Part shown: one piece after another, positions 39,001 through 45,000 of the stretch
Numbering within the stretch: position 1 is the first letter of the stretch
Layout: every line of letters begins with the position of its first letter
DNA from: Waterburya sp.
GTDB taxonomy: Bacteria > Cyanobacteriota > Cyanobacteriia > Cyanobacteriales > Xenococcaceae
Reading direction: 5' to 3'
Assembly (NCBI GenBank): GCA_965217895.1
Contig: CBDCJV010000002.1
Span: 1,056,001-1,120,000 of the forward strand
DNA length: 64,000 nucleotides
Made by a program: the position numbers

Positions 39001-42000
39001 AAGTATCAATGTTTTGCTCAACTTTCTCAACAAGCGATCGCTGATAAGATTATCACCGTCTTTCCCACTCTAGTTTTTGGAGGCGAAAAAGACAAACCTT
39101 ATTCTCATTTGAGCGCAGGTATTACCGACGTAACTAGATGGATTGGCTTGATTCGCTGGTTTAGCGTCGATGGTAGCTTTCATTTTATCCATGCCAAGGA
39201 TATAGCTGGAGTAATCAGCTATTTAGTTGAGCATCCTGAATTTTATCCGTCACGAAAAAAAGAAAATAGAGAAGTAGACTGCCTGGTAATCGGTAATCCA
39301 GCCATCACCGTAGATCGGGCGATCGCCGATATAGCTCAATATTTTAATAAAAGAACTTATATCCGCTTCCCTCTATACATTTGGCTAGCTAATATTTTTA
39401 TTCAAATTTTTCAGATTCAAATGGACACTTGGAGCCGTTTTTCCCTTGATTATCGCCACTTTACCTACACTAATCCCGTTACTCCCGCTAGCTTCGGTAT
39501 GACTAATTACTGCTCTACTGTAGAAGAATTAATGGCGGTTTCAGGGGTTTAGAGCATCAACTTTGAATTGATGAACAGAGACAGATGGAGAGGTGGAGGA
39601 GTAGAGGAGATGGAGAAGTATTATCTTTTACCCCAATTACCCAACTACCTCAATTACTCCTCAAAACAATTTTGACGGACTAGTATAGCCGTACAAAGTT
39701 AGATTAGGACAAGTTTGTTTGACTGCTCGTAAGTAACAAGTAACAAGTAACAAATGTCCTAATCTTAGTCCTTATTGCTATAAATAGTAGGAATGACATC
39801 ACTAATATAAAACTATAGTTTTTTATGTGGACGGGATTGAAAATTAGCTTACGGTTGAAGCCAAAAAATTATCGACTTGGGCAAGCTGATAATCTGGGAT
39901 GCAGTTATGCTCCATATAAAAGCGATATTCATCTTTGGCGCGATCGCATTGTTCTGTAGTCCAGTCACAGTACCTTTGCAGTATATTTGTAATTGTAGGC
40001 AATAAATTCATACCGTAATGACCATTCATTGCCAAAGTGGTACGACGACGCATAATATCTACTAAAGTATGGGCAAATTCTCTTTCGACAGCGTAGACTA
40101 TCTGAGCTTTAATATCTAAGACATTGGGACTTAAAGGCTCACCTAAATCAGGGTTGTCTTTAATTAAAGCCAAAACTTCTAAGGCTCTAGCACCATAAAT
40201 TGAAAATAAATGATAAATAGTATTAGCTGTCAAAGTTGAGTCATATTCTAGAATTGCCTGCTCAACCCGTGAATCGCTAGGCAGAATACACCCAGGCAAA
40301 GGCAGAGAATCGGTTTGACATGGCTTTGGCGATCGCTTTGTACGTTTGAGAATATCATCTACCATTTCTTCGCCGACGTTGCGATAGGTGGTTAACTTGC
40401 CACCAATCAGGGTAAGTAAGTTGTTAACGCCCTCTTTCTTATGATCGAAAATAATATGTTTACGGGTAATGCTACCTGGCTTTTTGCCCTCAGAGTTCGG
40501 TAGAGGACGGACTCCAGAATAAGTAAACTTGATATCATCTCGTCCCAAATTAGCGGTAGGAACAATGCTATTTGTTTCTCTCAACAAATAATCAATTTCT
40601 TCATCATTAGCTTTAATATTTTCGATGTCATCTTTATAAGGTATGTCCGTAGTGCCAATCAAATACATACCTAACCAAGGAACAATAAAGAAAGGACGAC
40701 CATCTGATTTTGCTTCCACGTATAAAGTCGAACCTGGCGCACCAGGAAAGGGATCTACGACAATATGACTTCCTTTTGTACTACCATTTTTCTGAGTATT
40801 ACCAATTGACTTTTTATTTCCCTCTTTACTACCCAATTGACAGACGCGATCGATCCAAGGTCCTGCGGTATTGATTACCATTGCGTTAGCACTACCCGAA
40901 ATGGTAAAGCTTTCTCCCGTCAGCTTATCTTTACAAACAACATCGGTGATACGGGAGTTTTTAAGCGGAAGCTCAGTAACTTCAACATAGTTAAATATGG
41001 TCGCCCCAGCATTTTGCGCCGAGATAATATTTTCCAAGCAAAGACGCTCTGCTAAAGTAACCTGTCCATCATAATATTGTGAACCACCTGCCAAATCATC
41101 ATCATCAAGAGAGCGAAATAGCTGTTTAAACTTTGCTTTGGGTAGCATTCGATGAACGGGTAAAGTCTTATCAAAGCTAAAAATATCGTAAAGAATCATC
41201 CCTGCCCAAATTTTCCAATAGGGACGAGAGCGATCGCGATAAATGGGTATAGTTAACTGAAGAGGAGTAACCAAATGCGGGGCGTTACGCAGCAACACTT
41301 CTCTTTCTTTTAAAGATTCTCTGACTAACGGAAATTCAAAATACTCTAGATAGCGTAAGCCACCGTGAATCAAGCGGGTAGACCAGCTAGAACTACCGCT
41401 AGCAAAATCATTCTTCTCCACCAAGATTGTTTTTAAACCCCGCAAAGCTGCATCTCTCGCCACACCTGCACCATTGATTCCGCCGCCAATAATAATTACG
41501 TCGTAGTCTGTTTGTTGAATTTGAGCAAAATCTCGCATAAAGCAGGTTCTATATAGTTCAATATTGTTAATTAATTACTTATAACTTAACTAAATTAGAA
41601 ATCAAATTCTACATAACATCTTTTGACTGCTCACCCGCATGAATGACGGGTGATTCTAGCTATTAGCTTTCAGCTATTAGCTTTTAGCTTTTGATTAAGA
41701 GCATTTATCATTCTAGAAACTTCATTTATCTTATCTGTTAGTAGCTGAGATTTGCTATTATCTAAATATCCTAAATCTCTGGCTATTAATATTTGACACT
41801 TAACTTCACAAGCGCTACCTTGTGCTATGTCTAGAAAACGACTAAATTCTTTATCCCCATTGCGTCCACAGCCCTCGGAAATATTAGATTCAATCGATAC
41901 AGATGCTCTTCTTATTTGATTGGTTAAACCGACCTTTTCATCGGTTGGAAAATCTTTAGTTATTTTGTATAAGTTAACAGTGAAATTATGTGCTTTTTGC

Positions 42001-45000
42001 CATACTTTGAGTTGCGTGAAGTCTTGCATTAAATTAAGTATTAACTATTAGTTAATATTGTATACAAAAGCTAAAAGCTAAAAGCTAAGAGCTAACGCAA
42101 AGTCACCTTAGAAGGATGAGGCTTTAAACCCAGAGCGACGGTAAGAGCTAACGATTGTTCGCCCCTACCCAAAACTTAATCTGTTGCCAACTTTATTTGA
42201 CTTGGTATAACTACAGACTTTTCTTCAACATTACTCGTACACAATCTATACCCCTAGCTTGAACTTCAAAGATAGAATTTTATAATTGCGATTGGCTGTG
42301 TGCAGCTTGTAATCCTGCTCTAAAAGCATTCAACAAAGATCGAACATTTGCCCCCAAACCAAAATTAATGAAGCGACATAATCCAGATTCATTTTTGATC
42401 AAAGCGACTCTGTTACTAATTAGTACCTTGACTGTCATGGCTGGGGCAGCGATCGCGCCGTCCTTACCAGCAATGGAAAAGCATTTTGCCGATGTGGAGA
42501 ATGCCGAATATTTAGTCAAATTGGCTTTGACTATCCCCGCTTTATTTATTGCCCTTTTTAGCTTCATAGTCGGAATGTCAATCAACAGCATTGGACGTAA
42601 GCCATTGCTGTTGGTTTCAACTTTACTCTTTGCCTGTGCAGGAAGTGCGGGTTTTGTCTTAAATTCCTTATGGGCTATTATCTTGAGCCGAGTCTTAGTT
42701 GGTCTATCGGTAGCGGGAACAATGACTGGGGTAATGACGATTATCAGCGACTACTATCAGGGTCAAAAGCGTGCCAACTTTATGGGTCTACAAGCTGCTT
42801 CTATGGGTTTTGGAGGGATGGTATTTGCGGCCGCTGGAGGAATAAGTGCCGATTTTAACTGGCGTTTTCCTTTTTTAATTTACTTATTGGCTTTTTTCGT
42901 TTTTATTTTAGTAGCGATCGCCATATACGAACCCGAACCAGACAAGATTAGGAATACCAAACGTCAAGCTTTTGTGCTACCCAAAGAATCAATTGGCATA
43001 ATCTATGCTTTAGGACTAATTTATATGGTTGCTTACTATTTAATTTTTGTGCAGCTACCGTTTTATCTACAAGAAATTAGTAATGCCAGCGCAGCCCAAA
43101 GCGGTATAGCCCTGGCGATTTCCACCTTAGCAGGGGCGATCGCCTCTTCTCAATATGGCACGATTAAAAAACATCTCGATTTTAGCAGCATCATAATTAT
43201 TGCCCTGGCATTGACGGCAGTTGGTCAATTTATTATGGGGTTTGGAGACAGCTATCGAATAGAGTTGTGCGGTTTGATCATTGGCGGAGTGGGATTTGGT
43301 CTAATTATGCCTAACTTTAGCAACTGGCTGGCGACTATTATGCCCAATCATCTTCGTGGTCGAGCTTTGGGCGGATTAACCACTTTCTTATTTTTGGGTC
43401 AGTTTATTTCACCAATTATCAGTCAACCGATTATCAAAGTTGTCGGCTTTGCTAATACCTATAGCTTGAGTGCTATTTTACTGCTACAGCTAGCCATAAC
43501 ACTTTTGGTAGTCAAAATTTCCACGGCATTTATCGCCGAGAAAATTTGAAATTAGAGACATGAAACTCTCAATTTTATTTGAATCTCCTTTTTGGATTGC
43601 CTTACTTGAAGAAGAAAGTGACGGTTTGCTGTATGCAGCACGTCATGTTTTTGGTTCCGAACCAAGCTCAGAAAACGTTTATGAATTTATTTTGAGTGGA
43701 GAATACAAAATTTTAGTTGAGAGTATGACAGTAGGCTTACTCGTAAAGCGATCGCGCCAACGCCGTATCAATCCCAAACGTCTGCAACGCCAAATTAGGC
43801 AAGAAAAAGAGCGCTCGGGCATTTCTAATCAATCGCGAGAAGTTATGCGACTTCAGCAAGAGCAAAATAAAAAAGAGCGTGCTTCAGTATCTAAAGAAGA
43901 ACGAGAGACCAAACGCAACTATAAGCGCGAACTAGCCAAAAACAAAAGAAAACAAAAACATCGTGGCAGATAAGACCGCAGTAGGTTAATCGGTTAGCAC
44001 AGAAGATTTAACTGCCCGCAAGTAACGAGTAATGAGTATCTGAATACAAGGCACGTATTGCTTATTTGGGTAGAGGTAAATGGCTATTCATCCTTGCAGA
44101 ATAGTCTAGTCTTACGTATGAACGTTAGAACATTTCGTTAAATACTACTCCCTGCGAGGGGTTACTCCTTGGCTACTTTCGAGCCAATCACCCTCACTGT
44201 GGCGATCTAATCTTGTACGACTATATGTTGTTCGGCGATCAACAAAAAACAGACATAAATTAAGCAGTTTTGAAACCTTTCCTCGTCTCGTTTATAGCTT
44301 TCAAATGCCATACTCAAAACTACAATACTTTAATCGCTTTTGCCGACAGCAATTATTCAAATTTAAAATTTTAGATTTCCCAATTCTCGGCTATGAGCGA
44401 ACCACCTCGATCAATCAAATGTATCTTAGCAAAAGTTTCTTATATAACAACTCTGCTGAACGGAGCAATCAAATAATATGACAGGACAAACTGTAAATAA
44501 AGGTCGCCTAGCAGTCTCTCTGGCTGCATTGGCTTCGTTGATTCCAGGTCTAGCTGCACTATATTTTTGGCGACTTCAGGCTAACCCACCCGTGGCAACT
44601 ACTGCTCCTGAAGCTGTTCCTGAAGTCCCAGTTGCCAGAAACGTAACTTCTTTGGGTCGTGTTGAACCAAAAGGAGAAGTTATTACAGTTAGCGGAACTG
44701 TTGGCAGTCGCATTAGCCAGTTGTTGGTCGATGAAGGTCAGCAGCTAAAAAAAGGGCAGGCGATCGCTTATTTGGACGATTATGGCGAAAAGCTAGCTGA
44801 TAAAAACCTAGCTGCTAGTCAATTAGAAGACGCTCGTGAGCGTTACAATACCGTCACAAAATATGGCGAAGCTCAAATTGAAGAAGCGATGACTCGCATT
44901 GAGCAGATTAAAATGCCTGAATCTTTTCAAGTTAATGCTCAAAATGCTACGGTCAAGCAGTTATCGGCAGAGTTAGAGACAGTAAAGAAAGATTACGAAC

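Follow-up and report, generated by a model that had tools for sequence, protein, structure and literature searches.

The window analyzed here is a stretch of 64,000 nucleotides from the genome of Waterburya sp. On its minus strand it contains a gene for a four-helix-bundle (S23p/IVP) protein enclosed by two inverted arrays of 7-bp tandem repeats (the arms), which are enclosed in turn by the ends of a 518-bp, non-autonomous IS200/IS605-type unit (41623-42140). The features are as follows, in window coordinates:

41612..41617, no strand: rearrangement breakpoint located 6-10 bp beyond the right end, from comparison with four close relatives
41623..41656, minus strand: IS200/IS605-type right end with a subterminal hairpin (41631-41653), ending in TCAA on the minus strand
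41657..41693, no strand: downstream heptamer arm from repeat analysis, ~5 copies, TAGCTTT/TAGCTAT on the plus strand
41670..42029, minus strand: four-helix-bundle gene (119 aa), matching the profiles PF05635 and TIGR02436
42030..42064, minus strand: leader; directly inward of the upstream arm it has a -10-like hexamer, TACAAT (42057-42062), a putative promoter
42065..42095, no strand: upstream heptamer arm, ~4 copies, AAAAGCT on the plus strand, reverse complement of the downstream arm
42096..42140, minus strand: IS200/IS605-type left end with a hairpin
42141..42144, minus strand: target tetranucleotide TTAC, directly outside the left end, without target duplication
42141..42170, no strand: remnant of a palindrome, which we take to be REP-like, invaded by the element

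The encoded protein exceeds the curated cut-offs of both family profiles (139.7 bits against 33.8 for PF05635; 131.8 against 24 for TIGR02436), and its structural model (pLDDT 95) has the four-helix fold of 2GSC (TM 0.92), which places it in this family. Comparison of the model returned matches to 2GSC, 2RLD, and Avd only (TM 0.80 to Avd, 4DWL), with no nuclease, recombinase, or transposase fold; neither profiles nor fold comparison gave the window locus a transposase or recombinase of its own, as an autonomous insertion sequence would have. The final codons and stop of the gene are encoded within the downstream arm. A hexamer resembling TACAAT was recognized by eye at approximately 13 of the 20 genes of the window gene's subclade, and a consensus promoter/terminator scan, which performed at chance level, called no promoter at the leader. 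Family matches occur in 78 of 151 genomes sampled across the phylum. The family genes are under purifying selection (median dN/dS of 0.10 over 61 non-independent pairs), and 9 of the 79 copies described below have in-frame stops.

The genome-wide survey's note had placed the window gene between inverted heptamer arrays, and this was borne out: the stretches 41663-41693 and 42065-42095 (31 nt each, unit AAAAGCT/AGCTTTT) are 90% complementary. The same note counted three family loci in this genome, with only g01847 passing an automated test. There are four, the additional one (C2:3012375-3012720, plus strand) being 74.6% identical to the window protein, with a TGA at codon 10 and inverted arms present. 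All four pass the arm test used here (ungapped inverted score of at least 12 and period-7 score of at least 4 in flanks of ~200 nt), the split locus with a score of 27 alongside the three unsplit loci. The G054 paralogue was also recovered (protein 90% identical over the profile span).

Inverted arms were found by this test around 58 of 79 full-length family genes (those with enough flank among 90 distinct top matches; three are from this genome), and around 16 of 20 family genes in eight further-sampled genomes. As controls, 12 of 3,984 mechanically called ORFs of this genome passed, two of which are family genes (leaving 10 of 3,982 others), as did 66 of 1,200 cross-paired flanks. A match of score at least 12 was present in inverted orientation at 67 of the 79 family genes and in direct orientation at 10. 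In the small-genome families, inverted arms of score at least 15 surround 20 of 21 genes; the best arm period is 8 in 13 of these 21, and heptamers in every arm are thus not confirmed. It could be supposed that the gene merely lies by chance in repeat-littered intergenic DNA, of which this genome has plenty (453 arrays of period 7, with 415 lying outside ORFs). This is refuted by the arm test (58/79 against 10/3,982), by the inverted and not direct orientation, and by the arms of the small-genome families, from which a single sampled genome had 0 arrays in 80 kb, and we give it a negligible probability.

Both arms of a locus change together. At 41 of 50 loci they differ by one mismatch at most, which is true of 305 of 5,000 cross pairs, and the heptamer unit tracks the protein tree (Mantel r = 0.53, with permutations reaching no more than 0.26), each protein clade having its own heptamer, even inside one genome. 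The arm-gene-arm unit is therefore a heritable module. Stop codons occur in 22 of 31 inward-facing units against ~15 expected, an excess given little weight because the units are non-independent. Matching changes in both arms would also preserve pairing if the arms acted as RNA, forming an RNase III-cut stem as in 23S rRNA intervening sequences (IVS), with the cassette tolerated in, or processing, host transcripts. In the predicted RNA fold of the window locus, the arms do pair as a single long stem (z = -3.7), the heptamers of the Coxiella IVS lie in a stem cut by RNase III (PMC4990558, in part), and 18 of 21 genes in the small-genome families are co-oriented with both neighbors. However, between co-directional neighbors in the genus set the gene runs with them in 26 cases and against them in 24, the upstream neighbor of the window gene is divergent, and transcription starting at the -10-like box, which lies inward of the upstream arm, would probably miss that arm; we consider a role as RNA quite unlikely.

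REPIN-RAYT systems pair a conserved gene, inherited vertically for the most part, with flanking repeats of a class dispersed in its genome, RAYT being an HUH transposase. By analogy, the four-helix-bundle protein could propagate its own arms as a minimal self-mobilizing or repeat-amplifying element, with the dispersed arrays as non-autonomous offspring and the IS ends incidental. In keeping with this, the commonest array classes in this genome are the heptamer units of the local family genes, and over nine genomes 12% of dispersed arrays match the arms of own-genome genes in their exact unit, compared with 1.8% (p = 1e-4); G028 was left out of this repeat-vocabulary test by a score threshold, and its top array unit (10/15) is the unit of its gene. 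Clade-specific heptamers within one genome, purifying selection that nevertheless coexists with interrupted copies, and the pairs L040/L042 (93%) and L001/L098 (82%), in which shared sequence runs roughly from arm to arm only, likewise favor self-propagation. Yet of 15 pairs examined, none that is bounded by arrays exceeds 93% identity, the protein lacks the folds named above, a reverse transcriptase (RT) is present in just one of five small genomes with a family gene, and co-inheritance alone is enough to account for the tree signal. Furthermore, arrays are plentiful (13-33 per 80 kb) in three genomes with no detected family gene, and array density did not differ (p = 0.25) between nine genomes without a family match (13, 0, 33, 15, 0, 2, 0, 1, 0 per 80 kb) and 11 genomes with one (18, 15, 20, 0, 9, 9, 9, 2, 18, 8, 0). 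The proposed tie to cyanobacterial heptamer repeats thus holds for repeat identity but not for repeat abundance, and self-propagation appears improbable. The polarity of solo arrays is that of outer arm ends in 66 cases against 20, and among the 453 arrays here, 13 have an inverted and 17 a direct partner within 250 nt.

The ends enclosing the module in the window have the properties of non-autonomous IS200/IS605 derivatives: a fixed target tetranucleotide (TTAC), a right end in TCAA, subterminal hairpins, and ends common to tnpA/tnpB elements. The same two end motifs bound tnpB loci in 19 of 78 matches with at least 300 nt upstream, one locus with these motifs carries a PF01797 TnpA, and the right-end motif also occurs 1.3-1.7 kb from the opposite end in tnpB elements. 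Nine ORF-less elements with window-type ends are present in this genome, seven of them containing heptamer arrays, and three copies agree at 206-210 of 210 letters. Measured against the IS ends, the orientation of the gene in L001 is opposite to that in L008, L036, and L097. The non-periodic terminal inverted repeats and target duplication of MITEs were not found at the window locus. Insertion without target duplication is read from one empty site (L100 in G023), which lies beside a rearrangement breakpoint and where element-free flanks agree at 17 of 21 letters. At this breakpoint, four close relatives run from the DAO-family (glpD-like) gene into another gene instead of the MFS gene; because no matching element was seen by eye at the reciprocal junction (C2:2538 kb), the window element is not credited with causing the rearrangement. 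TnpA matches occur in 24 of 38 genus genomes and, with two queries, not in this one, so that present-day mobility of the window element is putative. Homing into a pre-existing hairpin of the same unit was rejected, as the empty sites, inspected by eye, lack an array of matching unit.

At L009 and L058/L059, the module is enclosed by MITE inverted repeats with target duplications, and two copies in G023 share 99.8% identity over 576 bp, ending exactly at a MITE inverted repeat. This pair is the only recent duplication found, and its ends are MITE termini, not arrays. Of 79 family genes, 16 have a carrier motif nearby (8 on both sides), compared with 135 (4) of 3,984 controls; nhmmer profiles of the ends had low sensitivity (4 of 79), and patterns and inspection were used besides. 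The survey's note had called the gene a mobile cassette while allowing that it might be a passenger of nested MITEs. The module is indeed gained, lost, and inverted, but the base-resolved moves are all bounded by IS-derived ends outside the arrays, and at the window locus, where IS605-type ends lie outside the arrays, the passenger description applies. It does not suffice throughout: one subclade occurs in different carriers, none of six recognized end motifs was found at 63 of the 79 genes, and arm and protein vary together. At L056, a stop codon and a start codon directly adjoin the arms where this genome has an 11-bp gap, and carriers therefore leave some gains and losses unexplained. For 28 of the 79 family genes, there are ORFs within 110 nt on both sides. 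Patchy presence and inversion at the split-gene site were both confirmed in relatives, the enclosed segment in G020 being reversed and 99.7% identical, with the switch point inside an array; at the g01847 site in G017, a single arm remains.

These observations are best accounted for by two nested layers, a repeat-armed module inside IS or MITE carrier ends, to which we assign a probability of roughly 0.6. The inner layer would be a long-lived four-helix-bundle gene co-inherited with two inverted short-tandem-repeat arms. Recombination between the arms would flip the gene and probably keep the arms matched, perhaps together with gene conversion between them, and deletion would leave single arms that add to the heptamer arrays between genes. 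Solo arrays may thus be relics, as favored by their polarity, by the unit matches to own-genome genes, and by the lone arm in G017; the scarcity of inverted partners and the array-rich genomes with no detected gene speak against the two-layer account. In the outer layer, the module, which has no transposase, would be cargo of any enclosing non-autonomous ends: in the window those of IS200/IS605, inserting 3' of TTAC without duplication and presumably dependent on TnpA in trans, and at other loci MITE inverted repeats. The protein may act as an Avd-like pentamer that binds its own repeat; for the family, a homopentamer was inferred from 2GSC (PMC4990558, in part).

The closest known arrangement is the Coxiella IVS, in which an S23p ORF occupies the loop of a terminal inverted repeat, and the start codon is preceded by tandem heptamers that vary in copy number (PMC4990558, in part). 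With these heptamers published as part of the stem, the statement in the survey's note that the link was unreported does not hold. The window cassette shares the protein family and an ORF enclosed by a terminal inverted repeat, its stem being a prediction at this locus. Unlike the IVS, which lies in 23S rRNA, it has protein-gene neighbors and no rRNA family match (a single weak Rfam match was below the cut-off), and it is enclosed by IS ends; the cassettes here lie between protein genes in either orientation and carry a gene under purifying selection.

Non-autonomous IS200/IS605 derivatives with passenger genes are known as PATE or MIC-type elements and follow the TTAC/TCAA rule; our literature search found no paper on them. 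As in those elements, the left end of the window element follows TTAC and the right end finishes in TCAA; it also has subterminal hairpins, neither a target duplication nor an internal tnpA or tnpB, and short ORF-less siblings. It differs in its cargo, a repeat-armed module that is invertible between its own arms and also occurs in unrelated MITE ends. The likeness to REPIN-RAYT lies in a conserved gene flanked by a repeat class dispersed through its own genome, whereas this protein belongs to no known catalytic fold, and its repeats are heptamers in tandem. Small dispersed repeats have reportedly been seen inside heptamer stem-loops. Avd of diversity-generating retroelements has the same four-helix fold (PMC10053308, in part), but the window protein scores 27.6 on NF033474, below its cut-off of 80. 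Partnership with an RT is unsupported: none of eight RT matches adjoins a family gene, and the small gene-carrying genomes have it in only the one case given above.

In the literature searched (subscription papers and supplements being outside its scope), inverted repeat arms are nowhere described as a family-wide feature, and no paper was found on 'tandem inverted repeats' with an associated protein. The module links a widespread protein family with solved structures to the intergenic 7-bp repeats of cyanobacteria, both long unexplained. Going further, these proteins could supply the partner so far missing for bacterial heptamer repeats, with each subfamily recognizing and maintaining or spreading its own 7-8-mer without a transposase fold and cyanobacterial STRR-type arrays (perhaps also GGGAATC of Xanthomonas) being cassette offspring, a tentative and rather doubtful proposal. 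Mobility at the window locus is explicable as IS200/IS605 cargo, which leaves less for the protein to explain, and the clade-specific heptamers offer a direct binding test with built-in controls. The STRR heptamers of cyanobacteria and the GGGAATC and GGGGA(C/T)T repeats of Xanthomonas and Nostoc (PMC2670836, PMC4692102, in part) likewise form 7-bp arrays between genes, lying near stop codons with a fixed strand polarity and in some cases paired in inverted orientation. The terms 'S23', 'helix bundle', and 'intervening' are absent from the main text of PMC4692102. In contrast to those repeats, each unit class here belongs to one clade of one gene family, and the units GGGAATC and GGGGATT are themselves found flanking family genes in this analysis.

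The gene in the window lies between a DAO-family gene on one side and an MFS gene on the other:

41670-42029, minus strand, gene of the PF05635/TIGR02436 four-helix-bundle family, 119 aa (profile matches)

Its arms, the inverted arrays of 7-bp tandem repeats on either side, are two heptamer arrays of 31 nt with 90% complementarity, and the last codons of the gene fall within the downstream arm. The genome-wide survey's note had listed three family loci framed by such arrays. A profile search gave five matches representing four loci, the overlooked one being C2:3012375-3012720 (C2 is the contig that holds the window), where the protein is 74.6% identical to the window protein and is interrupted by a TGA; the framing itself is borne out at all four, which pass an arm test (ungapped inverted score of at least 12 and period-7 score of at least 4, in flanks of about 200 nt). 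The armed gene is a real feature of this genome. The window also holds a 32.6-copy ACTTGCT array (51120-51347), whose unit class is that of the split-gene arms (C2:5147530-5156766) and the genome's commonest, and in-frame protein-type repeats with 126/42-bp and Pro-rich 12-bp periods (54991-55424 and 8375-8476).

The arm test is passed by 58 of 79 full-length family genes (those with enough flank among 90 distinct matches taken from the best matches, a sample in which kin are not independent). The controls gave 12 passes among 3,984 ORFs from this genome (two being family genes) and 66 among 1,200 cross-paired flanks; chance is therefore not the source of the association. In a second set, from eight genomes, 16 of 20 family genes pass. 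Small-genome families have inverted arms scoring 15 or more at 20 of 21 genes, although only nine pass the period-7 test, and the best repeat period is 8 in 13 of the 21. An RNase III-processed RNA role resembling that of intervening sequences (IVSs), which we consider improbable, would suit these families better than the rest, since 18 of their 21 genes are co-oriented in operons. Among genes of the genus set in gaps between co-directional neighbours, 26 run with and 24 against their neighbours. In L327-L346, loci of the small-genome families, the cassette is found again in the same operon gaps of several genomes, with a 7-, 8- or 9-mer arm unit, and in some the arm contains the upstream gene's stop codon.

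The note had found no report linking this gene to heptamers. For one element it has been published: according to the accessible text of PMC4990558, the Coxiella IVS, which encodes a member of this family, has tandem heptamers along with terminal inverted repeats. No family-wide description of inverted arms was found in the literature covered, supplements and subscription papers lying outside it, and the accessible part of PMC4679880 does not refer to the family. The available text of PMC2670836 describes 7-bp hairpins in cyanobacteria that have no known function. The module here, like the 23S rRNA IVS, is a gene within arms, but it lies outside rRNA; an IVS-like module in that setting, with a repeat that matches the host's dispersed heptamers, poses one sharp question, namely cognate repeat binding by the protein.

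Both arms have a common unit within one mismatch at 41 of 50 loci (305 of 5,000 cross pairs), and this unit tracks the protein tree, which has few columns and many open forks (Mantel r = 0.53; permuted maximum 0.26). Co-inheritance suffices to account for this agreement. The protein is under selection (median dN/dS = 0.10, maximum 0.20, 61 pairs), in-frame stops occur in 9 of 79 gene copies, and Q38, R41, N49, E52 and E75 are invariant in an alignment of 16 sequences. A structure model of the window protein (pLDDT 95) resembles 2GSC, 2RLD and DGR Avd, with no transposase among its structure matches; the likeness of PF05635 to Avd is pointed out in the part of PMC10053308 that is accessible. 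The genome has eight RT matches, of which three with identical scores (C2:36310, 274721 and 2700498) are probably copies of one mobile intron. The best account, to which we give a probability of roughly 0.6, is that arm, gene and arm would be passed on as a single unit, the gene flipping by recombination between arms, solo arms being shed by deletion and the module travelling as cargo of IS-derived ends; gene conversion may also contribute.

Two short ends with hairpins lie outside the two arrays of the window gene. On the gene strand, the 518-bp unit begins after TTAC at 42140 and finishes in TCAA at 41623, which we take to be the IS200/IS605 rule. One end, used as a search pattern, matches at least 80 loci in other genomes; among the matches listed, tnpB is present at 19 of 78 with enough upstream DNA, most of these 19 having the second end 1.3-1.7 kb off, and one locus carries a PF01797 TnpA. 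Once the unit is taken out, its flanks, which lie inside a REP-like palindrome, have 17 of 21 letters in common with the empty site of relative G023, and no duplication is present. A rearrangement breakpoint lies 6-10 bp beyond the right end, and homology of the site is therefore limited to the MFS side; there is no sign that the element caused this rearrangement. Nine ORF-less elements in the genome have both ends; heptamer arrays with a variety of units are present in seven of them, and three have 206-210 of 210 letters in common. Two queries found no TnpA in this genome, the second matching 24 of 38 genus genomes; TnpA may nonetheless have moved the element. The note's mobile cassette stands in that gain, loss and inversion are seen, but mobility at this locus is ordinary, the cassette riding as a passenger within a non-autonomous IS200/IS605 element. 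Near-identical 210-bp elements with such ends (C2:1492941, 2848309 and 4907896) carry a heptamer pair in inverted orientation as well as small palindromes nested within them. Elsewhere, a frameshifted Y1 transposase-like gene, presumably RAYT-like, adjoins GTAG-type palindromes (C2:2354800-2355330), and a tnpB-type gene (C2:1621700-1622900) has a 3' end unlike the window element's ends.

Sites were compared in four close relatives with flanks 90-96% identical. None of the four has a cassette at C2:3012 kb. At the g01847 site (C2:1874478-1874843), one relative has the cassette, another has just a single arm and the remaining two have neither. At the split gene, one relative agrees with this genome, two lack the cassette and one (G020) has it inverted, the enclosed segment being reversed at 99.7% identity with a switch point within the array. 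Measured against the IS ends, L001 carries the gene in one orientation, and loci L008, L036 and L097 carry it in the other. The split gene is broken at a short TTAAA core by a 9-kb element (C2:5147750-5156616) whose first gene is a tyrosine recombinase (PF00589). The near identity of this element in relatives G019 and G020, while the adjoining gene is about 93% identical, suggests recent horizontal exchange.

Both flanks of 28 loci map to this genome, side by side for 13 (one being the filled g01847 orthologue and two ambiguous). Flanks at least about 90% identical are found at two of the side-by-side loci, and both of these are enclosed by MITE inverted repeats, with duplications of 7 bp (L009) and 10 bp (L059); L059 and L058, both in G023, have 99.8% identity across 576 bp, stopping exactly at an inner inverted repeat. 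Of the 79 family genes, 16 have one or more of six recognised end motifs nearby, and eight have them on both sides (controls, 135 and 4 of 3,984), so that carriers are enriched yet account for a minority. At L056 the arms directly adjoin stop and start codons where our genome has 11 bp, and ORFs lie within 110 nt on both sides of 28 of 79 family genes. A gap at about 26100-26320 of the window, between genes labelled by inspection as chemotaxis-type and CheA-like, has no cassette; the matching gap in relative G054 holds a 90%-identical paralogue of the window gene with arms and one MITE end.

Period-7 arrays number 453 in this genome (5-90 for periods 5, 6, 8, 9 and 10), and the units of the local family genes make up the commonest classes. 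Among arrays sampled from nine genomes, 12% have the exact unit of own-genome genes against 1.8% for those of other genomes (p = 1e-4; with one mismatch allowed, p = 0.012). To this extent the note's tie to heptamer repeats holds, but nine genomes lacking a family match and 11 having one showed no difference in array density (p = 0.25). That result, with an inverted partner for only 13 of the 453 arrays, counts against strict dependence of arrays on the gene. The protein may bind its repeat; that it spreads this repeat itself appears doubtful. Where solo arrays adjoin a gene edge, their polarity agrees with that of a cassette's outer end (66 versus 20), as reported for G-rich heptamers in the accessible text of PMC4692102, which does not mention this family alongside them. 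Some solo arrays (L254 and other sites after an aminotransferase gene) start as a tandem copy of the host gene's last seven bases, stop included, and 80 arrays in this genome sit within 10 nt of a stop codon.
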